In this document: one piece after another, positions 7,413 through 26,674 of the stretch
Numbering within the stretch: position 1 is the stretch's first letter
Layout of the letters: each line of letters starts with the position of its first letter
Source of the DNA: an uncultured Gemmatimonadales bacterium
GTDB lineage: Bacteria > Gemmatimonadota > Gemmatimonadetes > Gemmatimonadales > GWC2-71-9
NCBI GenBank assembly: GCA_963716055.1
Contig: CAVQSR010000001.1
Coordinates: forward strand, 1,946,855 to 2,010,854
Length of the DNA stretch: 64,000 nt
Direction: 5' to 3'
Program-made: the position numbers and the translations under genes
Notes under the pieces: model-generated
The model's database searches: none
What the model was told of the DNA's origin: nothing
What the model saw: the letters and a program-made list of their open reading frames with translations, nothing else

Positions 7413-7961
7413 TCAGCGCGGGCGCGGCGTGCGCGGCCGCTGTGCCGGCGCGCCCGCCCCCGGCCGTTGCCCGGCGCCCGGACGCACGCCCGCGCGATTG
7501 CGCCGCAGGTCTTCGACGCGCTGGAGTAGCCGCTCGCGCAGCATCCGGTACTGCGCCACCTGCACGGGTGACAGGTACTCGGCCATGTCCCGTTCCTGGG
7601 TTTGCTCCAGCTCGAACAGGCGGCTACGGTTCTCCCGCAGGGCCTCGTTCAACCGGCCCACGCTGTCGGGATCGGCCGCGACGCCGGGTCGCATCTGCTG
7701 TTGCAGTGCCATCCGCAGCTCGCGCTGGCGCAGCATCACCGTGCGGCGCTCGCCTGCGAACTTCCGGTTCGTCGCGTGCAGGCGCCCCATCTGCTCGTCG
7801 TTCAGCCCCAGCTCCGTCCGCACGTGCTCGGCGAAGCGCCGCTCGATCGCTTCGCGCAGCTGCTCGGCGCGCGCCGGATCCGGCGGTGGGGGCACGTCCT
7901 GCGCGACCGCCGCCGTCCCCACCAGCAGCGCGCAGGCCAGACCCACGAAACGCGTGTTCAT
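7413..7961 (-). CDS. periplasmic Spy/CpxP-like (LTXXQ-type) protein
   Basis: 182 aa. Signal peptide MNTRFVGLACALLVGTAAVAQ. A helical Q/R/E-rich body with LNDEQMGRL and LSPVQVAQY repeats. It is the last gene of the ECF sigma operon. Confidence 0.65.
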   Translation of the reverse strand: MNTRFVGLACALLVGTAAVAQDVPPPPDPARAEQLREAIERRFAEHVRTELGLNDEQMGRLHATNRKFAGERRTVMLRQRELRMALQQQMRPGVAADPDSVGRLNEALRENRSRLFELEQTQERDMAEYLSPVQVAQYRMLRERLLQRVEDLRRNRAGVRPGAGQRPGAGAPAQRPRTPRPR

Positions 7962-7964
7962 CGC

Positions 7965-8399
7965 TCACCCCTCCAGTGACTGCAGCACCGTCTCGAGCTG
8001 CTCGGCATCGAGATCGTCCAGACTGCCCGGCGCGAGCCCGACCGAGTCGCCCAGCGTCTCATCCAGCGTGCGCAACAGGTCGCTCAGCTCCTCGGTTCCG
8101 AGCCCGACCAGGTCCGCCGTCACGAACCGGGTCGGCTCGGGCGGTCCGCCGAGCTGACGAGCTACGACACCCGCCCCCGCGAGCAACACCAGCGCCGCGG
8201 CCAGCCGCAGCCACACGGGAATGCGGCGCCCCGGACGCGCCAACGGGAGGACCTCGGGTTGACGGAGCCGCTCGACCACGGCCTGCGCCACCGCCTCCGC
8301 GTCCACCCGCGCCGCGGCGCGCGCCCCCAAGCGGGCGGCGAGCCGACGCAGCTCCTCGTCTCCCAGGTCGGCGTCGTCGTTCATCGGATCCCGTTTCAT
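7965..8399 (-). CDS. putative anti-sigma factor (single TM helix)
   Basis: MKRDPMNDDADLGDEELRRLA..., then the TM segment WLRLAAALVLLAGAGVV. ATG at 8399 overlaps the sigma-factor stop (ATGA). The call rests on position and topology only. Confidence 0.55.
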   Translation of the reverse strand: MKRDPMNDDADLGDEELRRLAARLGARAAARVDAEAVAQAVVERLRQPEVLPLARPGRRIPVWLRLAAALVLLAGAGVVARQLGGPPEPTRFVTADLVGLGTEELSDLLRTLDETLGDSVGLAPGSLDDLDAEQLETVLQSLEG

Positions 8400-8971
8400 G
8401 CGAGCCACTCCTTCAGTCGCTTCACCGCATGGTGATAATGCACGCGCGCCGCCCCGGCCGTCGTGTCGAGTGCGGCCGCGATGTCGTCGTAGGCGAGCCC
8501 CTGCTGGGCGCGGAGCAGGAACACTTCCCGCTGCAGGTGCGGCAGGCGTCCCAGCCCCTGCTCGAGCCGCCGTTCGGCCTCGCCCGCCACGGCCACCTCG
8601 TGCGGGTCGCCGTCGTGCGATGCCACCTGCTCATCGAGGGGCACGACCTGCCGCCGCCGCGCCGCCCGTCGTCCCAGGTCCCTGAGCGCATTCCCGCCGA
8701 TCGTCATGAGCCACGTGCGGAACTGGCACTGCCCGCGGAATCGGCCCAGCCCCTGGAACGCCCGGATGAACGTGTCCTGCACCACGTCGTCGAGGTCGGC
8801 CGGAGGCGCGCCCGCGCCCGCCAGGAACCGCGCCAGCGCTTGCGTGTGCCGCCGGACCAGCTCGGCGGCCGCACGCTCGTCGCCCTGCTGCCAGGCGGCG
8901 ATCAGCGCCGCGTCGGGCGCGGCGGCGGGCAACGGAGTGGCCATGGGCGCTTCACGGGGTTGGACGTTCAT
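8396..8971 (-). CDS. ECF-type RNA polymerase sigma-70 factor
   Basis: Region 2 reads DLDDVVQDTFIRAF...FRTWLMTIGGNALRD. Region 4 reads REVFLLRAQQGLAYDDIAAALDTTAGAARVHYHHAVKRLKE. An alternative start is ATG at 8944. Confidence 0.9.
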   Translation of the reverse strand: MNVQPREAPMATPLPAAAPDAALIAAWQQGDERAAAELVRRHTQALARFLAGAGAPPADLDDVVQDTFIRAFQGLGRFRGQCQFRTWLMTIGGNALRDLGRRAARRRQVVPLDEQVASHDGDPHEVAVAGEAERRLEQGLGRLPHLQREVFLLRAQQGLAYDDIAAALDTTAGAARVHYHHAVKRLKEWLA

Positions 8972-9014: not shown

Positions 9015-9043
9015 TTGAGGGGCCCTCCGTGCCGCGCTAGGTT
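9015..9043 (+). promoter_or_regulatory. candidate sigma-70-like promoter for the TetR/paa operon
   Basis: TTGAGG (9015-9020), a 17-nt spacer, then TAGGTT (9038-9043). Pattern match only. Confidence 0.25.
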
Positions 9044-9052
9044 GCCTGCTTC

Positions 9053-9066
9053 CGAACGAGCGTTCG
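9053..9066. promoter_or_regulatory. inverted repeat CGAACG-AG-CGTTCG, candidate TetR operator
   Basis: 6-bp arms with a 2-bp centre, just downstream of the candidate -10 and upstream of the TetR coding region. An overlapping TTCG-AC-CGAA mini-palindrome is also present. Confidence 0.3.
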
Positions 9067-9085
9067 ACCGAATGCCGCTTCCCCC

Positions 9086-9679
9086 CTGCCCCGCCAGGCC
9101 GACGAGCCGCTCGACGGGCTGCTCGCGGCGGCGGCGAGTACCTTCGCGGAGCGGGGCTTCCACGCGACCTCCATGCGCGACCTCGCGCGGGCGTCCGGGA
9201 TGAGCCTCGCCGGCATGTACTACTACGTGCGATCCAAGGACGACCTGCTGCAGCTGATCCAGAAACGCTGTTTCGAGCGGGTCGCCGACGGCGCCCGTGC
9301 GGCGCTCGGGGGGGGCACCGATCCGGTCGAGCGGCTGCGCGTCTTCATTCATCACCATGTGACGTTCTTCGCGCGCCACATGGACGAAATGAAGGTCTTG
9401 GCGCACGAGGCGGACAGTCTCACGGGGGCGCCGGCGCGCGCGCTGCGGGCGCACAAGAAATCGTACTCCGCGCTGCTCGTCGAGCTCGTAGCCGGGGTGA
9501 GTCCCGACAGCACCCCCGAGGAGCGCGCGGTGACGGCGTACGCGATCTTCGGTATGATGAACTGGATGTACACCTGGTACCGCCCGGGGGGCGCCGTCTC
9601 ACCTGACGAGCTGGCGGCACGCATCGCCGATCTGGCGCTGCGGGGCGTGACCGCCGCCGAGCCCGCGCGCGCAACCTGA
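9086..9679 (+). CDS. TetR/AcrR family transcriptional regulator (start unresolved; PaaR-like by position)
   Basis: The HTH reads FAERGFHATSMRDLARASGMSLAGMYYYVRSKDDLL. The first canonical start (ATG 9173) falls inside the HTH. The frame is open back to the stop at 9038, with only CTG 9086 or the out-of-frame ATG 9072 available as starts. Confidence 0.75.
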   Translation: MPRQADEPLDGLLAAAASTFAERGFHATSMRDLARASGMSLAGMYYYVRSKDDLLQLIQKRCFERVADGARAALGGGTDPVERLRVFIHHHVTFFARHMDEMKVLAHEADSLTGAPARALRAHKKSYSALLVELVAGVSPDSTPEERAVTAYAIFGMMNWMYTWYRPGGAVSPDELAARIADLALRGVTAAEPARAT

Positions 9680-10651
9680 ATGCCAAAGGACCCGATGCCC
9701 GCACCGCGAGCCGGCTCCCGGCCGGTCGATCCCCTGGAACAGGACCTGATCGACCGCATTGCCCAGGGGTTCATGGTGGAGTCCGAAGAGGACATGACGC
9801 CGGGGTACAAGAAGGCCCTGCTGACGCAGCTCACCGTGCAGGGCGACACCGAGCTGCTGAGCGCCCCCGCGTACTATCTCGCGTCGCGCGATGCGCCGAC
9901 GCTGAACAGTCGCATCGCGGTCACCGCGATCATCCACGACGAGCTGGGGCACGCGAACATCGCCTACCGGATCATGGAAGACCTGGGTGTGGACAAGCAG
10001 TGGCTGCTCTACGGGCGGCGGCCGCACGAGTTCAAGCACCCGTACGGCTTCGATCAGCCGCTCGAGAACTGGGCCGAGATGGTGGTGGCTAACGGGTTCT
10101 TCGACCGCGCGGGCATCACACTGCTCTCCGACGTGCACGAGCACACGAGCTACGGGCCGCTGAAGCGGGCGCTCGTGAAAGTGGATCGTGAGGAGGTCCT
10201 GCACCTGCGGCACGGGGAGTCGTGGATGAAGCGGCTCGCCAAGGCGGGCGGCGAGGCCCGCGAGGCGCTGCAGCGGGCCGTCGACTGGATGTTCCCCATG
10301 ACCATCGAGTGGTTCGGCTTGCCGGACGACCTCAAGCACCACGGCGGTCAGCTCGCCTACCGCCTGAAGGGCAAGACGAACGACCAGCTGCGGCAGGTGT
10401 GGATGGCGGCGACCGTTCCGTTGTGCGAGCAGATCGGGATCGCGGTCCCGGCGCACCACGACTCCGCCACCAGGACCTACGTCATCGATTATCCGTTCCC
10501 CTGCCAGTACGACCCGGCGGCGAAACGCTGGCTGTTCGATGAGTCGCTGAGCTGGGACCAGGTGTTCGAGCGCTGGAAGGCACGCGGCCCGATGAACCAG
10601 CGGTACATCGAGATGTGCCAGGGGATGTTCCGGAGGTGGAGTGACAACTGA
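9680..10651 (+). CDS. paaA: 1,2-phenylacetyl-CoA epoxidase subunit A
   Basis: 323 aa. Di-iron ferritin-like motifs IIHDELGHANIAYR and REEVLHLRHGESW, with overall PaaA-like sequence. The ATG directly abuts the TetR stop. Confidence 0.88.
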   Translation: MPKDPMPAPRAGSRPVDPLEQDLIDRIAQGFMVESEEDMTPGYKKALLTQLTVQGDTELLSAPAYYLASRDAPTLNSRIAVTAIIHDELGHANIAYRIMEDLGVDKQWLLYGRRPHEFKHPYGFDQPLENWAEMVVANGFFDRAGITLLSDVHEHTSYGPLKRALVKVDREEVLHLRHGESWMKRLAKAGGEAREALQRAVDWMFPMTIEWFGLPDDLKHHGGQLAYRLKGKTNDQLRQVWMAATVPLCEQIGIAVPAHHDSATRTYVIDYPFPCQYDPAAKRWLFDESLSWDQVFERWKARGPMNQRYIEMCQGMFRRWSDN

Positions 10652-10952
10652 CGCGCGCGTCTGGGACGCCCTCGGCGGGGTCACCGATCCGGAGTACGCC
10701 CTCTCGATCGTGGATCTCGGTCTCGTGTACGGCGTCCGCGTCATCGAGGACACCGTCCGCGTCACGATCACGTTCACCTCGATCGGGTGCCCGGCGATGG
10801 ACATGATCCTCGGGGATGCCGACGCGGCGATTCGGGCCCTGCCCGGCGCGCGCGACGTCCGGTTCGACGTCGTGTGGAGCCCCCCCTGGACGGCGGCGCG
10901 CCTCTCGGCGCGCGGCCGGCGGGTGCTGGCCATGTATGGTGTCGCGCACTGA
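10641..10952 (+). CDS. paaD: DUF59/MIP18 domain protein corresponding to the N-terminal half of PaaD
   Basis: VWDALGGVTDPEYALSIVDLGLVYGV...TFTSIGCPAMDMI...VVWSPPWT. The GTG start follows GGAGG. The protein ends where PaaD proteins continue into a Cys-rich tail. Confidence 0.75.
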   Translation: MTTDARVWDALGGVTDPEYALSIVDLGLVYGVRVIEDTVRVTITFTSIGCPAMDMILGDADAAIRALPGARDVRFDVVWSPPWTAARLSARGRRVLAMYGVAH

Positions 10953-10965
10953 GGAGCGCCGTTCC

Positions 10966-11178
10966 ATGCCGACGGAGGTGTACGAGGTGTTCGCCCGCAA
11001 GGCGCACGACGACGAGCTGCGGCACATCGGCAGCGTCAACGCGGCCGACGACGAGCTGGCGAAGACGTACGCGTGGACCCTGTACGACGAGGAGCGGTGG
11101 ATCGAGATGTGTGTGGTCCCGCGCCGCGCGGTCATTGCCGTGACGCCGCACGGCCGGCTCCCGCTGTGGGGGAATTGA
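10966..11178 (+). CDS. paaB: 1,2-phenylacetyl-CoA epoxidase subunit B (short, 70 aa)
   Basis: MPTEVYEVFARKAHDDELRHIGSVNAADDELAKTYAWTLYDEERWIEMCVVPRRAVI is PaaB-like. ATG at 10966 lies inside a longer track ORF. Confidence 0.78.
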   Translation: MPTEVYEVFARKAHDDELRHIGSVNAADDELAKTYAWTLYDEERWIEMCVVPRRAVIAVTPHGRLPLWGN

Positions 11179-11185
11179 GAGGCCG

Positions 11186-12004
11186 ATGACGACGACCGCG
11201 ACCACCCGGACCTTCGAGACCGCGGCGGATCTCGCCCCCGATGTGCGCGCCGCGCTGCGGCGTCTGCTCCTCGGTTGCGCCGACACCAAGCTCCTGATGG
11301 GATATCACTACGGCGAGTGGACCTTCGGGACACCCGCGCTCGAGGCCGCCGTGGCGAACTGCTCCATCGCCCAAGGGGAACTGGGCCACGTCCGCTTGCT
11401 GCACGGCATTCTCAAGACCAACTGGGACGACGATCCCGATCAGCTCGTCGAAGGGCGCGTGGCCGAGGCGTTCGCGAGCATCCGGTACCTGGACCACGAT
11501 CTTCCCGACTGGCCGGCCGTCGTGGCGATGAACTTCGTGGTGGATCTCGCGATCACGCGCGTCATTCACGCGCTCACGGACTCGGCCTTCCTGCCGCTGC
11601 GCGCCTGCGCGGACAAGCTGCTCCAGGAGGAGCGCTACCACATCCATCACGGCCAGGGGTGGTTCCGCACACTCGCGGCCGGCGATCGCCGCGACGTGGT
11701 CGCGGCGGCGGTGGACCGGGCCCTGGCGGACGTGGTGGAATGGTACGGCCCCGAGGGGGCGCCGGACGACGCCCTGTTGCTGCGGGCCGGGATCAAGGCC
11801 GCGAGCGACACGGACCTGTGCCGCGCTCTGTGCACCGACGTGGCGCGCGTGGCGGCGCTCTACGGCATCACGCCCCGCACGCCGGATCGGCCCGACGGCA
11901 CGACGTGGAACCCCGACCGCCGACGCGCCGGTCCGGGAGCACCCAGTGACGAGGTGCTCTATCATCTGCGGGGCACCAAGAACGAGGTCTTCAAGCGCGC
12001 GTGA
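11186..12004 (+). CDS. paaC: 1,2-phenylacetyl-CoA epoxidase subunit C
   Basis: 272 aa. LLLGCADTKLLMGYHYGEW...AQGELGHVRLLH...LLQEERYHIHHGQGWF is PaaC-like. Confidence 0.85.
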   Translation: MTTTATTRTFETAADLAPDVRAALRRLLLGCADTKLLMGYHYGEWTFGTPALEAAVANCSIAQGELGHVRLLHGILKTNWDDDPDQLVEGRVAEAFASIRYLDHDLPDWPAVVAMNFVVDLAITRVIHALTDSAFLPLRACADKLLQEERYHIHHGQGWFRTLAAGDRRDVVAAAVDRALADVVEWYGPEGAPDDALLLRAGIKAASDTDLCRALCTDVARVAALYGITPRTPDRPDGTTWNPDRRRAGPGAPSDEVLYHLRGTKNEVFKRA

Positions 12005-12204
12005 CGCCCGGCCCCGAAAAGCGCTGCCCCTTCTGCGGGGCCCCTGCCACGACCAAGGTGTCGGACTTCGCCACCTCGCTGATGGTCGCCGCGTACCGCT
12101 GCGACCACTGCAATTCCTACTTCGAGGCGATAAAATGGGGTGACCGGTCCGTGCCCCTGGACGTCCCCCCGTTCCTCGACCACGCCGGGCCCGCGACGGA
12201 CTGA
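12001..12204 (+). CDS. paaD: zinc-ribbon protein corresponding to the C-terminal tail of PaaD
   Basis: 67 aa. CPFCGAPATTKVSDFATSLMVAAYRCDHCNSYFEAIKW follows the PaaD tail pattern CPxCGS..(S)xFGST.CKALYRCxxCxxPFxxFK, as I recall it. The GTG overlaps the paaC stop (GTGA). Confidence 0.65.
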   Translation: MTPGPEKRCPFCGAPATTKVSDFATSLMVAAYRCDHCNSYFEAIKWGDRSVPLDVPPFLDHAGPATD

Positions 12205-12240
12205 GGCGCCCATTCACCGCATGCTGGAGAGCGACAGACC

Positions 12241-13044
12241 ATGACGGCTGCTGCGACGGACACGAAGCTGGTCAACTACCGGACGGAGGGCGGACTCGCG
12301 ATCGTCGAGCTCGCCGACCCGCCCGCCAATACCTACACCTACGAGATGATGCGGCAGCTGGACGCCGCGATCCTCGACGCGCGCATGGACGACGACGTGC
12401 ACGTGATCGTGATCCGCGGTGTGGGCGAGAAGTTTTTCTGCGCGGGTGCCAACATCAACATGCTCAACTCCGTCACCCCCCGCTTCAAGTACTTCTTCTG
12501 CCTGCACGCCAACGAGACGCTGAACCGCCTCGAGCAGACGCCCAAGCTCGTGATCGCCGCGCTCAACGGGCACTGCGTGGGCGGCGGGCTCGAGATCGCC
12601 ATGGCGGCCGACCTGCGCGTGGCCTGCAAAGACGCGGGCAAGATCGGCCTTCCCGAGGTCAATCTCGGCGTGCTGCCCGGCACCGGCGGCACCCAGCGCC
12701 TCGCCCGGATCGTGGGCAAGCCCAAGGCGATCGAGTTGATGGTCACGGGCCGCACCTTCGCCTTCGAGGAGGCGAAGGACCTGGGCATCGTGAACGAGAT
12801 CTTCCCCAAGGAATCGTTCTGGAACGACGTCCTGACGTACGCCCGGCAGTTCGCGCCTCCCGCCAAGGCGTCGAAGGCCGTGGGGCTCATCAAGCGCGCC
12901 GTCCAGTCGGGTGCCGAGGTGCCGTTCGAGAGCGCCCTGGCCATCGAGCGCGAGCTGCAGCAGCAGCTGTTCCAGAGCCAGGACGCGAAGGAGGGCCTCG
13001 CGGCGTACGTCGAGAAACGCAAGGCGGACTTCAAGGGTCGGTGA
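12241..13044 (+). CDS. enoyl-CoA hydratase/isomerase (crotonase) family protein
   Basis: 267 aa with FFCAGANINML and ALNGHCVGGGLEIAMAADLRVA...GLPEVNLGVLPGTGGTQRL. Confidence 0.9.
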   Translation: MTAAATDTKLVNYRTEGGLAIVELADPPANTYTYEMMRQLDAAILDARMDDDVHVIVIRGVGEKFFCAGANINMLNSVTPRFKYFFCLHANETLNRLEQTPKLVIAALNGHCVGGGLEIAMAADLRVACKDAGKIGLPEVNLGVLPGTGGTQRLARIVGKPKAIELMVTGRTFAFEEAKDLGIVNEIFPKESFWNDVLTYARQFAPPAKASKAVGLIKRAVQSGAEVPFESALAIERELQQQLFQSQDAKEGLAAYVEKRKADFKGR

Positions 13045-13051: not shown

Positions 13052-14484
13052 GTGCGCACCGATCTGTTCATCAACAACGAGTGGCGGCCCGCGGCGTCGG
13101 GCCGCCGCTTTCCGGTCGAGAATCCGGCGACCGAGGAGATCCTGGCCGAGGTCGCCGAGGGCGACGCGGCCGATATCGACGCGGCGGTCGCCGCCGCCCG
13201 CGCGTGCTTCGAGTCGGATGCGTGGCGCGGGCTCTCCGGGCGCCGGCGGGGCCGCCTGCTCGCGCGCGCCGCCGACCTGCTCGACGCGCGCCTCGACGAG
13301 TTCGCGCGCCTCGAGACGGCGCACAACGGCAAGACGCTGTTCGAGTCGAAGATCGAAGTGGGCATGACCGCCGCCACGCTGCGCTACTACGCCGGCTGGG
13401 CGGACAAGATCACCGGGGACACCCTGCCCGCCGACGGCCCGTTCTTCATCTACACGCTGCGCGAGCCGATCGGAGTGGTCGGTGCCATCGTCCCGTGGAA
13501 CTTCCCGCTCAACATCGCCAGCTGGAAGGTGGCGCCGGCCCTCGCCGCCGGCTGCACCGTGGTGCTCAAGCCCGCGTCGGAGACGCCGCTCACGGCCCTG
13601 CTGTTCGGCGAGATCGCCCTCGAAGCCGGATTTCCCCCCGGCGCCTGCAATGTCGTCGCCGGAGGCGGCACCACGGCGGGTGCCGCGCTCGTCCGCCATC
13701 CGGGCGTCGACAAGATCGCGTTCACGGGCTCGACCGAGGTGGGGCGCGCGATCATGCGCGAAGCCGCGGGCACGAACAAGCGCGTGACGCTCGAGCTGGG
13801 CGGCAAGAGCCCGAACATCGTGTTCGCCGACGCGGACCTCAAGGCTGCCGCGCGTGGGGTCCAGACGGGGATCTTCTACGGCAAGGGCGAAGTGTGCGCG
13901 GCCGGCTCCCGGCTCCTCGTCGAGCGCGCCGCTCACGACCAGATGGTCGAGCTCCTCGCCGAAGGGGCGCGCAAGCTGACCCCCGGCGATCCGCTGGACA
14001 AGCACACGCGGATGGGTGCGCTCGTCTCGAAGAAACAGCAGATGAGCGTCCTGGGCTACGTCGAGCGCGGCAAGGCCGAGGGCGCCCGCTGGTCGCCGGC
14101 GGCAACCCCGTGCAGCACAACGGCAAGGGCTACTTCGTCGAGGCCACGGTGTTCGACGACGTCACGCCGGACATGACGATCGCCCGCGAGGAGATCTTCG
14201 GGCCGGTGCTCGCGGTGCTGACGTTCGACGACGTGGACGAGGGACTGGCGCTCGCGAACCAGACGATCTACGGCCTGGCGGCGGGCATCTGGACGCGCGA
14301 CATCGCCAAGGCGCACCGCGTCGCGCGTGCCGTCCGCGCGGGCACGGTCTGGATCAACACCTACAACTTCTACGATTCCGGGGCGCCGTTCGGCGGGTTC
14401 AAGGCGTCGGGCTTCGGCCGCGACCTGGGCCGCGACGCCCTCGACGGGTACCTCGAGACGAAGACGGTGTGGGTGGGGCTCTGA
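13052..14484 (+). pseudogene. aldehyde dehydrogenase with an interrupted reading frame (1-nt deletion at about 14089): pseudogene or sequence error
   Basis: The frame from GTG 13052 carries FPVENPATEE..., VVLKPASETPLTAL, ELGGKSPNIVF and GEVCAAGSRLLV up to ..GKAEGAR. The protein continues as LVAGGNPV...EEIFGPVL...GFKASGFGR in the -1 frame. The codons cgc and ctg share base 14089. Confidence 0.82.
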
Positions 14485-14491
14485 CCGCCCG

Positions 14492-15672
14492 GTGACCGCG
14501 GCCTTCATCCGGGCGGCCGTGCGCACGCCGGTCGGACGGCACGGCGGCGCGCTGGCCGGCGTCCGCCCGGACGACCTCGCGGCCGTGGCCGTCAGGGCGC
14601 TGGTCGAGCGCACCGGCATCGACCCGGCCGCGATCGACGACGTGATTCTGGGGTGCACCAACGGCGCGGGCGAGGACAACCGCAATGTGGCGCGCATGGC
14701 GGCGCTGCTCGCGGGCCTGCCGGTCGAGGTGCCGGGCCAGACGATCAACCGGCTGTGCGGCTCCGGGCTCCAGGCCGTCGCGAGCGCCGCGCAGGCGATC
14801 AAGGCCGGCGAGGGGGAGACTGTTCGTGGCGGGCGGCGTCGAGCGCATGACCCGGGCCCCCTACGTCATGCTCAAGACCGGCGACCCGTGGAGCCGCCGT
14901 CCGCCGGAGATCGCCGACACGACCGTCGGCTGGCGCTTCACCAACCCCCGGATGTCCGCCGGAGTGGACCATCGGACTGGGCGAGACGGCGGAGGTGGTC
15001 GCCGACCGCTACGGCATCACGCGCGAGGAGCAGGACGCCTTCGCGCTCGAGAGCCAGCGGCGGGCGGCGCGCGCCCAGGCCGACGGCGCGTTCGCCGACG
15101 AGATCGTGCCGGTGCCGCTCCCCGAACGGCGACCGCGTTCACGGTGGACGAACATCCCCGTCCCGACGTCACACGCGCGAAGCTCGGTGCCGCTGCGGCC
15201 GGCGTTCCGCCCGGACGGCACCGTCACCGCCGGGAAGCTCGAGCGGCATCAACGATGGCGCGGCGGCCCTGCTCGTCACGGCCGTCCGCGGGACCGACCG
15301 ACGCCGCTGGCCCGGATCGTGACCACCGCGGTGGCGGGCGTCGATCCCGCGTGCATGGGCCTCGGTCCGGTGCCCGCCACGCGGAAGGCGCTGGCGCGCG
15401 CCGGCCTCACGATCGACGAGATCGATCTCGTGGAGCTGAACGAGGCGTTCGCCGCCCAGGCGATCGCGTGCATCCGGGACCTCGCGCTCGATCCGGCGAA
15501 GGTGAACATCTACGGCGGCGCCATCGCGCTGGGCCACCCGCTCGGCTGCTCCGGAGCCAAGATCCTGGCGACCCTGGTGCACGCGCTGCGGCGCACGGGC
15601 GGCCGGCTGGGGCTCGCCACGATGTGCATCGGCGTCGGCCAGGGCATCGCGATGATCGTGGAGCGGACGTGA
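14492..15672 (+). pseudogene. acetyl-CoA acyltransferase / 3-oxoadipyl-CoA thiolase (PaaJ-like), with at least 6 frame disruptions
   Basis: Thiolase segments appear in alternating frames. In order they read VTAAFIRAAVRTPVGR..NRLCGSGLQAV..AGEGE, LFVAGGVERMTRAPYVM..GWRFTNPRMSA, (E)[79 protein letters not shown] and PLARIV..NEAFAAQ..GGAIALGHPLGCSGA. Confidence 0.82.
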
Positions 15673-16420
15673 GCGCGCCGCCGATCCTGGTCGCGCGCGA
15701 CGGCGGGATCGCGACCGTCGACGCTCAACCGGCCCGACCGGCTCAACGCGCTCGATCGCGCGCTGTGCGATGCCCTGCTCGGCGCGCTGCGCGAGGCGGC
15801 CGCGGACGACGACGTGCGGGCGGTGATCGTCACCGGCGCGGGCCGCGCCTTCTGCGCCGGCGCCGACCTGGCCGTGCTCGAAACCGACGGCGAGGCGCTG
15901 GTCGCGGCGGGGCGCGAGATCGCCCTGGCGATCCGCGCGCGCGCCCAAGCCGGTGCTCGCCGCGGTCAACGGTGCCGCGGCCGGGGGCGGGGCCAACCTG
16001 GCGCTCGCCTGCGATTACCGCCTGGCGGCCGACGCCGCCGCCCTCGGGCAGGTGTTCCCGCGCCTCGGCCTCGCGCAGGACTGGGGTGGCAGCTACTTCC
16101 TGCCCCGCCTCGTGCGGCCGTCGGTCGCGCTCGAGCTCGTCTGGAGCGCCCGCATGGTGCCGGCCGCCGAGGCCCTCGCGCTGGGCCTGGTGGACCGGGT
16201 CGTGCCGGCAGACCGGCTGGCAGCCGAAGCGCGGGCGCTCGCGGCGTCCTGGGCGGAGCATCCGCCCCAGGCGCTGCGCCGCGCCAAGGAGGGTGTGTAC
16301 GCGAGCGCCGGCCGCTCGCTCGCCGAGATGCTCGACTGGGAGGTCGTCACGCAGCGGGAGCTGTTCGCGACGCCCGAGGCGCGGGCCCGGCTCGCCCGGG
16401 AGGCGGCGCGGCGGCGATGA
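15669..16420 (+). pseudogene. enoyl-CoA hydratase/isomerase family protein with 2 frame disruptions
   Basis: VSAPPILVARDGGIATV is in frame 0. TLNRPDRLNALD..VIVTGAGRAFCAGADL..ALAIRA is in frame +1. PKPVLAAVNGAAAGGGANLALACDYRLA... runs to the stop in frame +2. The breaks lie at 15720 and within a (GC)n run at 15936-15946. Confidence 0.78.
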
Positions 16421-17109
16421 GTGCACCGCTCGTGATCGCGCACCGCGGCGCATCGGCGGTCGAAGTCGAGAACTCGCTGGCCGCGTTCCGGGCCGCCGTG
16501 CGCCTGGGGGCGGATGGCGTGGAGCTCGACGTCCACGCCACGGCGGACGGCGCGCTGTTCGTCCACCACGACGAGACGATCGACGGCGTCCATCATGTGG
16601 CCCACGCCCGGGCTGAGCGGATCCGCCAGCTCCGGCTCGCGAACGGCGAGCCCGTGCCGACGCTGGCCCAGGCGCTGGCCGCGTGTGGCGCCCTGCGCGT
16701 CTTCGTCGAGGTGAAGTCGCTCGCGCCGGCGCAGGATGAGATGCTCCTGGCCACGCTCGATGCGGGTCCGAACCCCGCGGGCTACGCGGTGCACGGGTTC
16801 GACCATCGGATCGTGCGGCGGCTGGTCGAGCGCCGCCCGTCGCTGCCGTGTGGCGTGCTGAACGTGTCGTACCTCGTCAGACCGCTCGCCGCGTTGGAAG
16901 ACGCCGGCGCCCGCGCGCTGTGGCAGGAGCATCGCCTGGTGGACCGCGAGCTGGTCACGAGCGTGCACGGGGCGGGCGGCGTGGTGTATGCCTGGACGGT
17001 GGACGACGCCGAGCGCATGCAGGGCCTGCTCGATCTGGGGGTGGACGGTCTCTGCACCAACCGGCCGGACGTCGCGCGCCGCATCGTGGACGCGGAGGTG
17101 GCCGCGTGA
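16417..17109 (+). CDS. glycerophosphodiester phosphodiesterase family protein (230 aa)
   Basis: MSAPLVIAHRGASAVEVENSLAAFRAAVRLGADGVELDVHATADGALFVHHD... The ATG overlaps the upstream stop (ATGA). Confidence 0.85.
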   Translation: MSAPLVIAHRGASAVEVENSLAAFRAAVRLGADGVELDVHATADGALFVHHDETIDGVHHVAHARAERIRQLRLANGEPVPTLAQALAACGALRVFVEVKSLAPAQDEMLLATLDAGPNPAGYAVHGFDHRIVRRLVERRPSLPCGVLNVSYLVRPLAALEDAGARALWQEHRLVDRELVTSVHGAGGVVYAWTVDDAERMQGLLDLGVDGLCTNRPDVARRIVDAEVAA

Positions 17110-17993
17110 GCGGTTCGTCCTTTCCCGCGCCGTTTTTTCCGCCCGTCACCGTCGTCGGCGCCGGGACCATGGGGCACGGCATCGCGTACGTCGCGGCGCT
17201 GGCGGGCTGCCCCGTCACCCTCACCGACTCGCGCCGCCAGGCGCTCACCGAGGCCGTGCAGCGGATCGAGAGCCTGCTCGCGGGCGGGCTCAAGCGCGGG
17301 AAGCTCACCGAACAGGACCGGGCCATGGTGCACGCGCGGGTGCAGTCCGCCCGCGACGTCGCCTCCGCGGTCAGCAGCGCCGGCGTCGTCATCGAGGCGG
17401 TGGCCGAGGAGATGCTGGTCAAGCAACGCCTGTTCGCCGAGGTCGAGCGCCACGCACCCGCCGGTGCGCTCCTGGCCACCAACAGCTCGTCGTTGTCGGT
17501 GGGCCAGATCGCGGCGGCGCTGCGCGAGCCGTCGCGCCTCGTGGGGATGCACTTCTTCAACCCGGTCCACGCCATGCGCCTGGTCGAGGTCGTCCGCCAC
17601 GGCCGGAGTGACCCGGCCGCGATCGACCGCGCCGTCGAGCTGGCCCGCCTGTTCGGCAAGGAGCCCATCGTGGTGCAGGACTCGCCCGGGTTCGCCTCGA
17701 GCCGGCTGGGAATCGTGCTGGGTCTCGAGGCGATGCGCATGGTGGAACAGGGGGTCGCGAGTCCCGCGGACATCGACAAGGCGATGGAGCTGGGATACAA
17801 CCACCCGATGGGGCCGCTCAAGCTGACCGATCTCGTCGGGCTCGACATCCGCCTCGCCATCGCGACCTACCTGTACAAGACCCTGGGCGCGCCGCATTAC
17901 GAGCCGCCGCAGATCCTGCGCGACAAGGTGGCCGCGGGTGAGCTGGGCAAGAAGAGCGGCAAGGGATTCTACGATTGGGCGGAGGGCGCGTGA
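17106..17993 (+). CDS. 3-hydroxyacyl-CoA dehydrogenase (PaaH/Hbd-like, 295 aa)
   Basis: VTVVGAGTMGHGIA (Rossmann fold), TNSSSLSV, HFFNPVHAMRLVEVV, VQDSPGFASSRL and GPLKLTDLVGLD. The GTG overlaps the upstream stop (GTGA). Confidence 0.9.
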   Translation: MSGSSFPAPFFPPVTVVGAGTMGHGIAYVAALAGCPVTLTDSRRQALTEAVQRIESLLAGGLKRGKLTEQDRAMVHARVQSARDVASAVSSAGVVIEAVAEEMLVKQRLFAEVERHAPAGALLATNSSSLSVGQIAAALREPSRLVGMHFFNPVHAMRLVEVVRHGRSDPAAIDRAVELARLFGKEPIVVQDSPGFASSRLGIVLGLEAMRMVEQGVASPADIDKAMELGYNHPMGPLKLTDLVGLDIRLAIATYLYKTLGAPHYEPPQILRDKVAAGELGKKSGKGFYDWAEGA

Positions 17994-18859
17994 GCGCACC
18001 GCTGCCCTACCGCGTCACCGACGTCCACATCCACATCCAGCCCTGGCGGGACCTCAAGCCCAAGGTCCAGGAGGCGATGCGGCGCGGCAAGGAAGCGCAC
18101 TGGGACTTCCTCCTGGCGATGATGGACGATCCCGCGATCCTGCTCGACATCATGGATCGCTCGGGCGTGTGGCGGGTCGGCATGGTGAACTACGTCAGCC
18201 CGGACGTCATGGGCTTCACGGACTCCACCAACGCCTTCGTCGCCCGGTATGCCGAGGCGAGCCCGGAGCGCCTGCTCCCCTACGGCGGCGTGCATCCGCG
18301 GTTCACGCGCGATCCGGCGGGAGACGTGGACCGGCTGGTGGAAATGGGGATCAGACTCCTCAAGATCCACCCGCCTCACATGATGTTCCCCGCCAACGCC
18401 TACACCGACGGTCTCGACGCGCTCGGCGCGATCTATCGTCGCTGCGAGGAGCGCGGTCTCCCCGTCATGGTGCACACCGGGACGAGCATCTTCCCGGGTG
18501 CGCGCTCGAAGTACGGGAGCCCGCTCGAGCTGGACGACGTGGCGATCGATTTCCCGGACCTGCGGATCGTGATGGCGCATGGCGGGCGGCCGTTCTGGAC
18601 CGAAGAGGCGTTCTTCATCCTGCGCCGGCATCCGAACGTCTGGCTCGACGTCTCGGGCATTCCGCCGCTCAAGCTGTTGGACTACTTTCCCCGGCTCGGG
18701 GATATCTTCGCGAAGGTCCTGTGGGGGACCGACTGGCCGAGCCCGGGCGTGAAGGATTTGCGGCAGAATCTCGATCAGTTCCTGAGCCTGCCGCTGTCGG
18801 ACGACCAGCGACGGGCGGTGGTCGAGATCAATCCCCTCAGACTGTTCCCTTCGGGTTGA
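17990..18859 (+). CDS. metal-dependent amidohydrolase (amidohydrolase-2/TIM-barrel type)
   Basis: VTDVHIHIQPW..., MVHTG, RIVMAHGGRPFW and WGTDWP. GTGA overlap with the upstream stop. Confidence 0.75.
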   Translation: MSAPLPYRVTDVHIHIQPWRDLKPKVQEAMRRGKEAHWDFLLAMMDDPAILLDIMDRSGVWRVGMVNYVSPDVMGFTDSTNAFVARYAEASPERLLPYGGVHPRFTRDPAGDVDRLVEMGIRLLKIHPPHMMFPANAYTDGLDALGAIYRRCEERGLPVMVHTGTSIFPGARSKYGSPLELDDVAIDFPDLRIVMAHGGRPFWTEEAFFILRRHPNVWLDVSGIPPLKLLDYFPRLGDIFAKVLWGTDWPSPGVKDLRQNLDQFLSLPLSDDQRRAVVEINPLRLFPSG

Positions 18860-18908
18860 TTCCGGCTCTCCCGCCGGGAGTCGATCCGCCGCACAGGAGG
18901 ATTCGGCA

Positions 18909-20279
18909 GTGATCAAACGGCTTTGGATTCTCGGCCTGCTCGCCGCGGCGATGCCCGCGGCGGTCGCGGCCCAGGCAGGCGTCGTGCGGTACGAGCAGTT
19001 CGCGCTCGCCAACGGTCTTCGCGTGATCTACTCGGAGGACCATTCGACGCCGATCGTGACCGCCAACGTGTGGTACAACGTCGGCTCGCGCGATGAGCGG
19101 CCGGGTCGCTCGGGGTTCGCCCACCTGTTCGAGCACATGATGTTCCAGGGCTCGGCCAACGTCAAAAAGGCGGAGCATTTTCAGCTGGTGCAGCGCGCCG
19201 GCGGCTCGATGAACGGCACGACGTCGGAGGACCGCACCAATTACTTCGAGACGGTCCCGGCCAACCGCTTCAATCTGGCGCTGTGGCTCGAGGCGGATCG
19301 CATGCGCTCCCTCGCGATCACCCAGGAGAACTTCGAGAACCAGCGCGAGACAGTGAAGGAAGAGCGCCGCCTGGGCGTCGACAACCGGCCGTACGGCGCC
19401 GCGTTCACCGACGGCATGGCGCTGCCGTTCGACAGCACCGCGTGCTTTGCGTACGCACACACGGTGATCGGCTCCATGGACGATCTCAACGCGGCCAAGC
19501 TCGAGGACGTCCAGGCGTTCTTCGACACGTACTACGCGCCGAACAACGCGACCCTCGTCGTGGTGGGCGATTTCGACCCCGCCGAACTGCGCCGGTTGGC
19601 GACGCTGTACTTCGCGGACATTCCCCGGCGGTCCGATCCGCCCGCCGTCACCTGTGAGGTCGCGTTCGCTCCCGGCCCGGTGCGCCGTGAGGTCGCCGAT
19701 CGGCAGGCGAACTTGGATGCCGTGCTGCGCTTCTACCGGATCCCCGCGCACAGCCACGCCGACACGCCGGCGCTCGAGCTGCTCAACCTGATCCTGGGTC
19801 AGGGCGAGAGCTCGCGGCTGAACCTCGCGATCGTGCGGCGCGCCAAGGCCGCGCTGGGTGCCGGCGCCCTCTTGAATCCGTCGGGACCGCGTCGGGGACC
19901 GGGGGTCGCCATGGTGTTCGGCATCATCAATCAAGGGGTCGCGGTGGACCACCTCGACAGCTTGCTGGTCGAGCAGATGGACTCGATCCGCGCCCATGGG
20001 GTCACGGCCGAGGAGCTGACCAAAGCCAAGAACGGCTTCCGCGCCGCGTTCGTGAACAACCGCGAGACGACGATGAGCAAGGCGGAAGAGCTGCACCACT
20101 ACCTGATGTTCCATGAATCGCTCGAGGAGATCAATACCGACCTCGAGACCATCCTCGCGGTGACGGCGGATGACGTGCGCCGCGTCGCACAGCGCTACTT
20201 CGATCCCGCCAACGCCGTGACCGTGATCGTGCGGCCCGCGCCGGCAGCGGGTCCCGCAGGTCAAGGAGGCTCGCGATGA
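18909..20279 (+). CDS. M16 (pitrilysin/insulinase) family zinc peptidase, secreted
   Basis: 456 aa. Signal peptide ..AAMPAAVAAQA. HxxEH zinc motif in GFAHLFEHMMFQGS. AGGAGG Shine-Dalgarno. Confidence 0.9.
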   Translation: MIKRLWILGLLAAAMPAAVAAQAGVVRYEQFALANGLRVIYSEDHSTPIVTANVWYNVGSRDERPGRSGFAHLFEHMMFQGSANVKKAEHFQLVQRAGGSMNGTTSEDRTNYFETVPANRFNLALWLEADRMRSLAITQENFENQRETVKEERRLGVDNRPYGAAFTDGMALPFDSTACFAYAHTVIGSMDDLNAAKLEDVQAFFDTYYAPNNATLVVVGDFDPAELRRLATLYFADIPRRSDPPAVTCEVAFAPGPVRREVADRQANLDAVLRFYRIPAHSHADTPALELLNLILGQGESSRLNLAIVRRAKAALGAGALLNPSGPRRGPGVAMVFGIINQGVAVDHLDSLLVEQMDSIRAHGVTAEELTKAKNGFRAAFVNNRETTMSKAEELHHYLMFHESLEEINTDLETILAVTADDVRRVAQRYFDPANAVTVIVRPAPAAGPAGQGGSR

Positions 20280-22387
20280 CCGCCGCACGACGGCTCCCCC
20301 CAACGACGGTGCTCGGGACGCTCGTGGCACTGGCCGTCGGCCTCGCCGGCACCCTGCCCGCGCAGGACACGCTCCCGTCCCGGCCGCCCGCGCCGACGGC
20401 ACTCACGCCCGTGCGGTTCCCTCCGTTCCAGGAAGCCCGACTCTCCAACGGACTGACGCTGCTCGTGGTCGAGCACCATGAGCAGCCCACCGTGAGCGTG
20501 ACGCTCGGATTCGGCGCCGGATCGCGCTACGACCCGGAAGGCCGGGAGGGACTGGCGGACCTGGCGGCCGAGCTGCTCACCAAGGGCACGCCGACTCGCA
20601 GCGCCGAGCAGATCGCGGCGACCATCGAAGGCGTGGGCGCGTCGCTCAGCGCCAGCGCCGGCATGGACTTCTTCACTGTCGGCACCTCCGTGCTCACGGC
20701 GCACCTCGAGACCGCCTTTGCCCTGCTCGCGGATGTCGTGCGCAATGCAACCGTGCCCGCCGAGGAACTGGAACTGGCGCGCACCCGCTACCTGTCGCAG
20801 CTGCAACTCGAGATGTCACAGCCCGAGGCGGTCGCCGCCCGGTACTTCGCGCGCGAGCTGTACGGCTCCCATCCCTACGGTCGCCGCGCCACCCCAGCGA
20901 GCTACCGGACCATCTCGCGCGAGGACGTGCAGTCCTTCCTGGCGCAGCGGCTCCGGCCACGCGATGCCCTGCTCGTCGTCGCCGGCGATCTCACGATGCG
21001 CCAGGCACGCGCCCTCGTGGAGCGCCACCTCGCCGGGTGGCGCGGCGCGCCCACCGCCGTCGCGGAGTTCGCGACGCCAGCCCCGAAACGCAACACCGAC
21101 ATCCTGCTGATCCACCGGCCCGGTTCGGTCCAGGCGAACATCGTACTGGGCAACACCACGATGCTCCCGACCGACCCCAACTACTACGCGGCCCGGGTGG
21201 CCACCCAAGTCCTGGGCGGCGGCGCGGACGCGCGGCTCTTCCTCATCCTCAGGGAACAGAAGAGCTGGACGTATGGCGCCTACGCCTCGCTCGCCCGTTA
21301 CAAGGGCCTCGGCTTCTGGCAGGCGACCGCCGAGACGCGGACCGCCGTCGCCGACAGCGCGCTGACCGAGGTGCTGCGACAGGTGGACCGCATGCGCTCC
21401 GACATGGTGCCCGACAGTGAGCTGACCAACGTGCGTGGGTTTCTCGTGGGCTCGTTCCCGCTTTCCATCGAGACTCCGCAGCAGATCGCCAATCAGGTGG
21501 CGTCGGTGCGCCGCCTCGGGCTGCCGGACGACTACCTGCGGAACTACCGCGACCGGCTCGCCGCCGTGACCGCCTCCCGCGCGCGCGACGCAGCGGCCGC
21601 CACCTACCGGCGCGACGGGCTCACCATCGTCGTCGTCGGTGACGCGACGCAGCTGCGGGACCGGCTGGCGGCCATCGCGCCGGTGCGGCTCGCCGACATC
21701 GACGGCAACCCGCTCACGCCCGACGACCTCGCGCCGAAGGCGGTTGCCGTGGCCCTCGACCGGGCGCAGATCGTGTCTCGCACCGACAGCTTCAACGTGG
21801 TCATTCAGGGCAATGTGCTCGGCAGCCAGGTGTGGAGCGTGACCGCGACCGCCGATTCATTGCTCTTTCGGGAGCGCCTCGCCATCGCCGCGGCGGGCGT
21901 GAGCCAGCAAACCACCGTCCGGTTCGATCCGGCCAGCGCCACGGTCCGGCAGGTGGACCAGACAGGCGGCGCCGCGGGACAGACGAGCGAGATCCACCTC
22001 ACCTACGCGGACGGCCACGTCCGCGGGACCAGCGTCACGCCGCAGCCGACCGGCACGCCGAAGTCGTTGACGATCGATACCACGATCGCAGCCGACACGT
22101 ATGACGACAACGCCTTGCCGCTCGTGATCACGGCCCTGCCCCTCGAGGTGGGCAAGACCCTCAACGTGAGCGTCTTCTCGTCCAACGACGCGACGGTGAA
22201 GGTGATGACCGTCAAAGTCGGTCCGCCGGAGTCGGTGACCGTGCCGGCGGGCGCGTTCGAGGCGTACCGGCTGGACGTCAGCGGCGGGCAGGCCCCGTAC
22301 GTGTTCCACGTCACGACCGCGACCCCGCGGCGCATCGTCAAGGTCGAGATCGTGGGCGCGCCGTTCGTCTTCGAGCTGGCCAAGTGA
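20276..22387 (+). CDS. M16 family peptidase-like subunit (no HxxEH seen) with a C-terminal extension of about 230 aa
   Basis: 703 aa with a signal peptide. The M16 fold sequence reads LSNGLTLLVVEHHEQPTVSV...GLADLAAELLTKGT. Residues from about 470 to 703 are beta-rich and I cannot assign them. ATGA overlap with the upstream M16 gene. Confidence 0.8.
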   Translation: MTAARRLPPTTVLGTLVALAVGLAGTLPAQDTLPSRPPAPTALTPVRFPPFQEARLSNGLTLLVVEHHEQPTVSVTLGFGAGSRYDPEGREGLADLAAELLTKGTPTRSAEQIAATIEGVGASLSASAGMDFFTVGTSVLTAHLETAFALLADVVRNATVPAEELELARTRYLSQLQLEMSQPEAVAARYFARELYGSHPYGRRATPASYRTISREDVQSFLAQRLRPRDALLVVAGDLTMRQARALVERHLAGWRGAPTAVAEFATPAPKRNTDILLIHRPGSVQANIVLGNTTMLPTDPNYYAARVATQVLGGGADARLFLILREQKSWTYGAYASLARYKGLGFWQATAETRTAVADSALTEVLRQVDRMRSDMVPDSELTNVRGFLVGSFPLSIETPQQIANQVASVRRLGLPDDYLRNYRDRLAAVTASRARDAAAATYRRDGLTIVVVGDATQLRDRLAAIAPVRLADIDGNPLTPDDLAPKAVAVALDRAQIVSRTDSFNVVIQGNVLGSQVWSVTATADSLLFRERLAIAAAGVSQQTTVRFDPASATVRQVDQTGGAAGQTSEIHLTYADGHVRGTSVTPQPTGTPKSLTIDTTIAADTYDDNALPLVITALPLEVGKTLNVSVFSSNDATVKVMTVKVGPPESVTVPAGAFEAYRLDVSGGQAPYVFHVTTATPRRIVKVEIVGAPFVFELAK

Positions 22388-25519: not shown

Positions 25520-25640
25520 AGCGCTCTACCGCCCACGCCCGCCTGCCCCGACTTGTCCCGACTTGTCCCGACTTCTCCCGACTTCTCCCGACCTCTACCG
25601 ACTTCTCCCGACCTCTACCGACCTCTACCGACTTCTATTC
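25516..25640 (-). repeat. inverted decamer array: palindrome GTAGAGCGCTCTAC, then about 12 units ACYTSTMCCG (minus-strand reading CGGKASARGT)
   Basis: The clean units at 25551-25640 are acttgtcccg x2, acttctcccg x2, acctctaccg, acttctcccg, acctctaccg x2 and acttctattc. Degenerate units occupy 25521-25550. The array overlaps the last codons and the stop of the nitroreductase gene. Confidence 0.93.
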
Positions 25641-26299
25641 CAGACCGCGATCTCCGCCAGCGCCTTGCGCTGCAGGTCCGGCACGGTGGCATCGCCGGCC
25701 GGATATCCCACCGGCAGCAGCACGAAGGGTCGCTCCCACTCCGGGCGCCCGAGGATGCGGTTGAGAAACTCCATCGGGCTCGGTGTGTGCGTCAGCGTGG
25801 CGAGACCCATCGTGTGCAGCGCGGCGATGAGCAGCCCGGTCGCGATCCCGACCGACTCCACCGAGTAGTACGTCTTGCGCTTGGCGCCGCCCGCGCCCGG
25901 CCGCCACGCATGGCGAAACACGACGATCAGGTACGGCGCGATCTCGAGGAACGGCTTGCGCCAATCGGTGCCGAGGGGCGCCAGGTCCTCGAGCCACTCG
26001 GGCGGCGCCCGCCGCTCGTAGAACTCCCGCTCTTCCGCTTCGGCCCCCGCACGGATCTCGCCCTTGAGCCGCGGATCGTCCACGACGACGAACGTCCAAG
26101 GCTGCTGGTGCGCCCCCGAGGGCGCGGTGCCCGCCGTCCGGATGGCGATCTCGATCAGTTCGCGAGGCACGGGGTCACCGCTAAACGACCGCACCGTGCG
26201 CCGCCCGCGCATGGCATCGTGGAACGCGCGGCCGCGCGTGAGCGCCGCGGCGGGAGCGACCCGCTGCGGCCGGTAGGGGATGTGAGGGTATTCGGCCAT
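25625..26299 (-). CDS. nitroreductase family protein (iodotyrosine-deiodinase/BluB-like subgroup)
   Basis: 224 aa with [41 protein letters not shown]... and ...[28 protein letters not shown]. Confidence 0.82.
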
Positions 26300-26397: not shown

Positions 26398-26399
26398 GC

Positions 26400-26666: not shown

Positions 26667-26674
26667 GCTTTACC

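Follow-up and report, generated by a model that had tools for sequence, protein, structure and literature searches.

A paa-like gene cluster with frame breaks in three genes

The analysed DNA, hereafter the window, is a 64,000-nucleotide stretch from an uncultured Gemmatimonadales bacterium. It carries a run of forward-strand genes in which PaaA-, PaaD-, PaaB- and PaaC-like genes and a first enoyl-CoA hydratase gene are followed by genes for an aldehyde dehydrogenase, a thiolase and a second enoyl-CoA hydratase, all three of them interrupted by frame breaks (Table 1). Downstream, the affected stretch is bounded by an intact GDPD-family gene.

Catabolic clusters of the paa type comprise a PaaABCD(E) epoxidase, the PaaF/G hydratases, a PaaH dehydrogenase and a PaaJ thiolase. 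The present locus resembles the phenylacetate (paa) cluster in having a TetR-family regulator, oxygenase-like genes in a similar order, two crotonase-family genes, a thiolase and a 3-hydroxyacyl-CoA dehydrogenase, and its gene order is shared with Gemmatimonadales relatives. Unlike the paa cluster, it has PaaD as two separate ORFs and includes a StyD/BADH-like aldehyde dehydrogenase and an embedded GDPD gene; no PaaE reductase, PaaK ligase or PaaZ/PaaN-type enzyme occurs among the annotated genes between 9173 and 18856. The original prediction placed an intact paa oxygenase module upstream of the breaks. The ORFs are indeed intact, but all of the subunits score below the NCBIfam PaaA/B/C/D equivalog cut-offs (for PaaD, 63.9 against 108). 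Because the aldehyde dehydrogenase and the thiolase likewise fall below the StyD and PcaF equivalog cut-offs, the genes can only be labelled paa-like. The locus is thus a paa-like cluster conserved in Gemmatimonadales and not a demonstrated phenylacetate pathway.

Table 1. Genes and frame breaks at the locus, in window coordinates; breaks are described relative to the closest relative, JGI contig L081
Feature	Position	Strand	Evidence or change	Original prediction
Intact upstream gene block	9680-13044	+	ORFs; every NCBIfam hit below its equivalog cut-off; clean stop-bounded frame segments	
PaaA-like	9680-10651	+	Intact ORF; NCBIfam 124.6, cut-off 280	
PaaD-like DUF59 part	10641-10952	+	Intact ORF	
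PaaB-like	10816-11178	+	Intact ORF; NCBIfam 30.1, cut-off 85	
PaaC-like	11186-12004	+	Intact ORF; NCBIfam 84.7, cut-off 133	
Small zinc-ribbon PaaD C-terminal-like ORF	12001-12204	+	Intact ORF	
First enoyl-CoA hydratase	12241-13044	+	Intact ORF	
Aldehyde dehydrogenase, StyD/BADH-like	13052-14484	+	One break; about 477 aa from GTG start at 13052	
Thiolase, acetyl-CoA C-acyltransferase family, PcaF/PaaJ-like	14492-15672	+	Six break sites, 8 events; 390 aa corrected	
Second enoyl-CoA hydratase/isomerase family	15669-16420	+	Two breaks; 249 aa corrected	
GDPD family	16417-17109	+	Intact; PF03009 124 bits; single frame; no net frameshift vs L081	
Indel patch	14090-15940	.	12 events in 1851 bp; DNA alignment to L081	
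Aldehyde dehydrogenase break	14090		1 nt missing	14089, -1
Thiolase break	14821		Extra T	14819, +1
Thiolase break	14962		Extra G	14961, +1
Thiolase break	15126 + 15131		Extra A, extra G	15121-15138
Thiolase break	15192		Extra G	15192, +1
Thiolase break	15237		Extra G	About 15237, +1
Thiolase break	15285 + 15291		Extra T, 2 nt missing, net -1	15299, -1
Hydratase break	15720		Extra G	15720, +1
Hydratase break	15940		Extra C in GC-dinucleotide run	15936-15946, +1

Frame breaks and the proteins behind them

Three independent checks were applied to the reading frames: a GC3 frame plot combined with a 7-state frame HMM, an alignment of Gemmatimonadales orthologue proteins to the DNA that allows for frameshifts, and a nucleotide alignment against L081, which is 84.8% identical at the nucleotide level to window positions 13313–21846. 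The checks were concordant, and the frame jumps that had been noted in three beta-oxidation-type genes were borne out at the positions first given for them. Nine break sites were found, with one in the aldehyde dehydrogenase, six in the thiolase and two in the second hydratase. Alignment of each indel to L081, where the three genes are all intact, recovered every reported site and decided for the second option at 15121–15138, which had been left as either one −1 or two +1 shifts. Relative to L081, the sites amount to 12 events: ten insertions and one deletion of 1 nt each, and one deletion of 2 nt. The densest part of the patch (14821–15291) holds 8 events in 470 bp. Two pairs of events, 15126/15131 and 15285/15291, lie with only 5–6 nt between their members.

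Edits of 13 bases undo the indels and yield proteins of 481, 390 and 249 aa that contain no in-frame stop and can be aligned over their whole extent with intact orthologues and family models. The corrected reading took out 9 bases and put in 1 nt at one place and 2 nt at another. The aldehyde dehydrogenase moves from frame 2 to frame 1 at 14082–14090 in the frame plot and HMM. Its corrected product, queried against NCBIfam from a start five codons upstream of the GTG at 13052 (482 residues), spans the aldehyde dehydrogenase models from end to end, with 589.6 bits for StyD against a cut-off of 800. The thiolase follows the path 2 → 3 → 1 → 3 → 1 → 2 → 1. Once corrected, it scores 465 bits against TIGR01930 (cut-off 240.55), with residues 7–389 on model positions 2–385 of 385, and accordingly belongs to this acetyl-CoA C-acyltransferase subfamily; it is termed PcaF-like, its 529 bits against pcaF TIGR02430 falling below the equivalog cut-off of 597. 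The nearest intact thiolases, carrying the JGI name 3-oxoadipyl-CoA thiolase, share 84% identity with it along the full length (100%). Orthologues measure 388–392 aa for the thiolase and 249 aa for the hydratase, whose start overlaps the thiolase stop (GTGA).

It is conceivable that such breaks are crossed by programmed recoding, through ribosomal frameshifting or transcriptional slippage at each site. This would account for the presence of frame changes and for nothing more. Nine sites in three genes would have to be shifted in both directions (+1 and −1), no common slippery motif or downstream structure was found at them, every aligned orthologue including that of L081 is read in a single frame, and the nearest database proteins are full length. 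With conserved shift sites absent from the orthologues, recoding is effectively refuted, and we give it almost no credence.

The patch also stands out from the rest of the window. Over about 17 kb with syntenic orthologues, the frame switches only at patch sites or gene boundaries, and coding gaps relative to L081 outside the patch (about 0.8 kb upstream and 5.9 kb downstream) all preserve the frame. In the whole-window frame HMM, the remaining same-strand changes fall near a stop codon or at a stop separating two intact genes, the S8 peptidase gene being the exception. Frameshifts suspected at 7413–8400 and 25625–28681 turned out on inspection to reflect distinct, unbroken genes (a pair of small ones, followed by nitroreductase, L27, L21 and RNase G/E). 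Apart from the patch, the window has almost no breaks: one frameshift is confirmed and two candidates are weaker. The patch is enriched about 130-fold (P about 5e-15 after correction for scanning). Both of the background candidates named in the original prediction were revisited: the one in the S8 peptidase is certain and lies near 44415–44425 at a G4/C3 run, while the one in TetR is ambiguous. There, the HTH precedes the first canonical start, a CTG stands where relatives carry ATG, and a C6 run is nearby; the gene may use the CTG as its start and carry no indel in the C6 run. The gene at about 3165 also seems to be CTG-initiated.

The limits of the patch ignore the limits of the genes. It sets in after two-thirds of the aldehyde dehydrogenase gene and stops after the first third of the hydratase gene. 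The other 1.5 kb of these genes is without indels (P about 0.04), namely 1.04 kb upstream in the former and 0.48 kb downstream in the latter; the HBD gene (17106–17993) is also indel-free. Local features that might mark a hotspot were tried and rejected. The patch contains only short chance repeats, and its GC content of 0.72–0.80 does not exceed that of the unaffected 16.0–16.4 kb. Chimerism with an L081-like strain was likewise set aside: stretches of complete identity were never unusually long, and the level of identity to L081 did not change along the patch.

Constraint and the spectrum of changes

The original prediction had offered, without ranking them, a poor stretch of assembly or consensus and very recent decay of the genes. 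Constraint tests, the indel spectrum and the limits of the patch now favor error over decay. Relative to L081, dN/dS stands at 0.17 within the patch and at 0.08 in those parts of the three genes that lie outside it. Pooling five downstream genes gives 0.12, and single genes over the aligned stretch have values of 0.07–0.22. In a relative-rate test with 11–80 outgroups, amino-acid changes private to the window were fewer than those private to the intact L081 lineage (ratios of 0.85–0.89). Not one of the 404 codons with conservation of at least 95% across orthologues is altered. At the 95% level, this limits the three genes to about 11 neutral substitutions at most, beside 12 indel events. In short, the three corrected genes gave no sign of relaxed constraint, whether as raised dN/dS, an excess of private amino-acid changes, in-frame stops or lost conserved residues.

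These results bear most directly on genuine and very recent pseudogenisation, in which a lower beta-oxidation-like branch has fallen into disuse and the oxygenase genes remain intact. Three adjacent and functionally linked genes are affected and their flanks spared, as such decay would have it. Moreover, broken genes in high-GC genomes can look tidy because out-of-frame stops rarely form in them, and the frameshift of the S8 peptidase could be real too. Spontaneous bacterial mutation, however, produces base substitutions several-fold more often than indels, and 12 indels beside at most about 11 substitutions would reverse this spectrum. After the first frameshift in the thiolase, seven more in the same 470 bp would need neutral time, during which substitutions and stops should also have arisen, and the pathway partner HBD is untouched along with the outer parts of the dehydrogenase and hydratase genes. 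The events are also single-base (11 of 12) and biased toward insertion (10 of 12), whereas insertion:deletion ratios in Burkholderia pseudogenes and mutation-accumulation lines are 0.79–0.94 and the sizes are long-tailed (PMC6054270). With the insertion shares of that study, the probability of at least 10 insertions in 12 is 0.006–0.015. The locus does resemble the decaying pseudogenes of Mycobacterium leprae and of the Candidatus Burkholderia leaf-nodule symbionts in having several frameshifts per gene and in the involvement of neighbouring pathway genes. Nevertheless, true pseudogenes with at least three indels show raised nonsynonymous change and stops, deletions at least as frequent as insertions, and varied sizes (PMC6054270), none of which is seen here. 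Decay is therefore considered unlikely.

Another way in which the indels could be real is a mutational shower, where a single error-prone repair or gap-filling tract of about 2 kb left a burst of single-base insertions that was sampled almost at once. Such an event would account for the tight clustering, the disregard of gene boundaries, the uniform type of change and the absence of substitutions. On the other hand, we know of no bacterial process that gives about 0.65% insertions without detectable substitutions over 2 kb, and the products of error-prone polymerases, which are mainly substitutions and −1 deletions, differ from what is seen. The triple knockout would also have to be sampled almost immediately, and a technical explanation requires no new biology. 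We regard a shower as very improbable.

A probable patch of consensus error and its consequences

The frame breaks are, with high probability, artefacts of sequencing or consensus and not biology, and in the organism the three genes are probably complete and functional. The deposited consensus would then contain about 1.9 kb (14090–15940, worst at 14.8–15.3 kb) with residual single-base indel errors, mostly spurious insertions, within an otherwise fairly clean 2.47-Mb contig. This reading is favored because the corrected genes are free of in-frame stops, show no surplus of amino-acid changes and keep every conserved residue. It is also favored by the insertion-heavy spectrum, by patch limits that lie inside genes and by the event pairs 5–6 nt apart, a spacing characteristic of noisy consensus sequence that would hardly be expected of mutations arising independently. 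The second frameshift of the assembly, in the unrelated S8 peptidase gene, was counted toward it as well.

The length of the contig suggests long-read data, and indel-driven frameshifts are a known problem of long reads, especially in low-coverage metagenome bins (PMC9262707, PMC12007338). As in the consensus errors of long-read or unpolished assemblies, to which IDEEL-type tests and frameshift correctors are directed, single-base indels split genes of orthologue length, no load of substitutions is seen, the proteins are recovered with minimal edits, a frameshift in a G/C run occurs elsewhere, and the contig is very long. Unlike typical errors of this kind, the present ones are concentrated in 1.85 kb, and their sequence contexts place most of them outside long homopolymers, where the commonest residual nanopore consensus error arises. 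A different or additional cause must therefore be assumed for the patch, and the nearly clean remainder of the window means that the process must be strongly local. The cause may have been a local dip in coverage; alternatively, a long-read-only or gap-closure patch could have been missed by polishing, or reads of related strains could have been mixed into the consensus.

The reach of the comparison is set by the relatives at hand. The comparator is only 85% identical, and a very recent mutation burst with few substitutions would look identical to error. No independent assembly of the same species was found: for eight window proteins, clusters at 90% identity contain only 1–2 members, the second being about 90% identical, and the best thiolase among 5.8 billion clusters is 84% identical. 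A plasmid collection likewise yielded no close match.

The value of the finding is mainly cautionary. Error and decay can be separated without reads by means of frame-corrected dN/dS, a relative-rate test and a count of conserved columns against a moderately distant relative. If the indels were real, a burst of insertions free of substitutions would deserve study as an unusual mutational event, and a single burst would have inactivated three adjacent catabolic genes at once in a Gemmatimonadales bacterium. Under consensus error, which we consider much the likelier origin, annotation of the deposited sequence would call three probably functional genes of paa-like aromatic/fatty-acyl-CoA degradation pseudogenes or fragments, and metabolic reconstructions of this little-studied Gemmatimonadales lineage would wrongly infer the loss of the lower pathway.

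A divergent paa-like gene row and its neighbours

The frame breaks lie in a plus-strand gene row whose order is retained in relatives, the nearest being uncultured Gemmatimonadales; G+C of the window is ~71%. Its PaaA- to PaaD-like genes are predicted to form a divergent paaABCD-like di-iron oxygenase cluster. The cluster's gene content is like that of the phenylacetate (paa) pathway, but all four oxygenase subunits score well under the NCBIfam equivalog cut-offs, matches to the PcaF and StyD models are also below theirs, and a label no stronger than "paa-like" is therefore warranted. No PaaE-like or PaaK-like gene was seen among the genes annotated between 9173 and 18856. PaaD is split over two ORFs that flank the PaaB-like and PaaC-like genes.

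The strongest evidence on the frame breaks came from L081, a JGI soil-metagenome contig picked up because its M16 peptidase clusters with that of the window at 90% identity. Between the second enoyl-CoA hydratase (hydratase 2) and the 3-hydroxyacyl-CoA dehydrogenase lies a glycerophosphodiester-phosphodiesterase-family (GDPD) gene, whose start and stop codons overlap those of its neighbours. Such a gene is unexpected in an operon for acyl-CoA degradation; its placement is kept in Gemmatimonadales relatives (L081 3141-3833; also loci L001, L003, L009 and L012). The dehydrogenase-thiolase spacer has 42 nt fewer in the window (14485-14495) than in L081 (1179-1223), where it bears a GCGGAT(T)G-type short repeat.

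Genes of the paa-like row and other features discussed in the text (window positions)
Feature	Position	Strand	Remark
TetR-family regulator	9038-9679	+	
PaaA-like	9680-10651	+	
PaaD-like DUF59 part	10641-10952	+	103 aa, DUF59/SufT-like
PaaB-like	10816-11178	+	
PaaC-like	11186-12004	+	
Small zinc-ribbon ORF (PaaD part)	12001-12204	+	67 aa
Enoyl-CoA hydratase 1	12241-13044	+	
Aldehyde dehydrogenase	13052-14484	+	
Thiolase	14492-15672	+	
Enoyl-CoA hydratase 2	15669-16420	+	
GDPD	16417-17109	+	
3-Hydroxyacyl-CoA dehydrogenase	17106-17993	+	
Amidohydrolase	17990-18859	+	
Nitroreductase-like gene	within 25625-28630	-	
Ribosomal protein L27	26400-26672	-	
Ribosomal protein L21	26680-27000	-	
RNase G/E-family gene	27044-28630	-	
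S8 (subtilase) peptidase gene	~42344-45130	-	split by frameshift near 44415-44425, in GCGGGGCCCGCGG

Frame breaks in three consecutive genes

At such high GC, third-codon-position G+C is a sharp marker of the coding frame, and a frame plot built on it was run beside a 7-state frame HMM. Together they placed coding-frame jumps from 2 to 1 at ~14082, 2 to 3 at 14820, 3 to 1 at 14958 and 1 to 2 at 15948, with no stop codon at any of the four. In a frameshift-aware alignment to four orthologous proteins per gene, the dehydrogenase showed a single shift, the thiolase six and hydratase 2 two. The alignment with L081 covers 13313-21846 at 84.8% nucleotide identity, and every gene is intact in L081. 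Compared with it, 1 nt is missing from the window at 14090 and 2 nt at 15291, and there are single extra bases at 14821, 14962, 15126, 15131, 15192, 15237, 15285, 15720 and 15940; the remaining coding gaps in this 8.5-kb alignment are all frame-preserving. All of these approaches concur on breaks in three consecutive genes, and the nine sites of the original prediction agree with the L081 DNA alignment in both position and direction. Programmed frameshifting or recoding is scarcely credible as their source, as the shift site is neither shared between breaks nor conserved and the orthologues examined are single-frame.

Across ~17 kb with syntenic loci, homology-supported frame switches are confined to these sites and to gene boundaries. 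The clustering that had been claimed makes frame breaks ~130-fold denser here than elsewhere in the window (scanning-corrected P ~5e-15). The observation is confirmed, and the pattern is far from random.

When nine extra bases were removed (outside the gap of the 15285/15291 pair) and 1 + 2 bases added, the three genes became uninterrupted ORFs of 481 (dehydrogenase), 390 (thiolase) and 249 aa (hydratase 2), free of in-frame stops. Intact 388-392-aa proteins match the repaired thiolase along its whole length (100%; best 84% identity), and its score against the acetyl-CoA C-acyltransferase model TIGR01930 exceeds the cut-off (465 against 240.55 bits); the other two repaired proteins align end to end to their respective family models.

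Other frame anomalies in the window

Two to three background candidates had been proposed, in the S8 peptidase and possibly in TetR, and that in the S8 peptidase gene was confirmed. The Asp box at 44885 is read in one frame and the His box at 44377 in another, only ~44290-44450 is common to both ORFs, and the stitched protein gives a single continuous Pfam Peptidase_S8 match spanning the junction. A lipoprotein-type signal peptide, MRRAGIVATALFALG (~45140-45095), occurs in a third frame just upstream and adjoins G runs; a second frameshift in the gene, at this site, is probable.

The TetR candidate proved ambiguous. Its helix-turn-helix is encoded ahead of the first in-frame ATG/GTG/TTG (9173), an out-of-frame ATG occurs at ~9071 beside a C6 run, and a CTG stands exactly at the start codon position of the orthologues, so that either a 1-nt homopolymer indel or a CTG start would account for it. 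A possible second CTG start in the window belongs to a minus-strand gene at ~3165, after an aminopeptidase-like ORF: it has a signal-peptide-like beginning, a CTG that overlaps the upstream stop (CTGA) is the one plausible start codon, and no canonical start occurs until 110 nt into the gene. An HMM-flagged frameshift at 25625-28630 (minus strand) was rejected, the region being an intact housekeeping row.

Sequencing error or decay

The original prediction had offered consensus error or very recent decay. Broken frames are what genuine, very recent pseudogenisation would produce, but neutral decay with several frameshifts should bring substitutions as well. Here dN/dS against L081 was 0.17 within 14090-15940, 0.08 in the unaffected parts of the three genes and 0.12 for a pool of five downstream genes, with single genes over the aligned stretch ranging from 0.07 to 0.22. 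In a relative-rate test with 11-80 outgroup orthologues, private amino-acid changes were slightly fewer in the window than in the intact L081 lineage (ratios of 0.85 for the dehydrogenase, 0.86 for the thiolase and 0.89 for hydratase 2). Conserved residues are indeed still readable, as had been noted: none of 404 columns (176 + 150 + 78) conserved in at least 95% of orthologues is changed, which bounds neutral divergence at ~0.33% per site, or at most ~11 substitutions in the three genes. In spontaneous bacterial mutation, substitutions are several-fold commoner than indels, and 12 indels against that bound therefore reverse the usual ratio.

The indel spectrum is equally unlike decay. Ten of the 12 events are insertions, two are deletions, and 11 involve a single base, whereas in Burkholderia pseudogenes and mutation-accumulation lines the insertion:deletion ratio is 0.79-0.94 and sizes are long-tailed (PMC6054270; P 0.006-0.015 for the observed bias). 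Two event pairs are spaced 5-6 nt apart. A real, one-off shower of insertions is a very unlikely source. The affected patch begins two-thirds into the dehydrogenase gene and ends one-third into that of hydratase 2, while 1.5 kb of these same genes and the pathway partner genes are unaffected; its confinement within three genes has P ~0.04. Taken together, the tests, spectrum and extent indicate a process that adds bases but leaves existing ones unaltered, and that tracks position on the molecule rather than gene function, which points to residual consensus error. Pseudogenisation, which shares the broken frames but fails on substitutions, conserved columns and indel spectrum, is accordingly improbable.

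Every feature of an assembly indel-error patch that sequence can test was found here, and the patch most probably consists of local indel errors from sequencing or the consensus step; the three genes themselves are probably intact. The assembly contains at least one further indel at a short G/C run, which, with the 2.47-Mb contig, is compatible with long-read data, where indel-driven frameshifts are well documented, notably in bins below ~40-fold coverage (PMC9262707; PMC12007338). Since most of the patch indels lie outside long homopolymers and hardly any breaks occur elsewhere in the window, the patch requires its own local cause, which could be a dip in coverage, a long-read bridge left unpolished, gap-closure sequence from a single pass or reads admixed from related strains. 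No repeat or structure pointing to such a cause, and no exceptional G+C, was found in the patch; chimerism with L081-like sequence was not found either, and the collections searched contain no independent assembly of the same species. In practice, the aldehyde dehydrogenase, thiolase and hydratase 2 genes should not be scored as lost.
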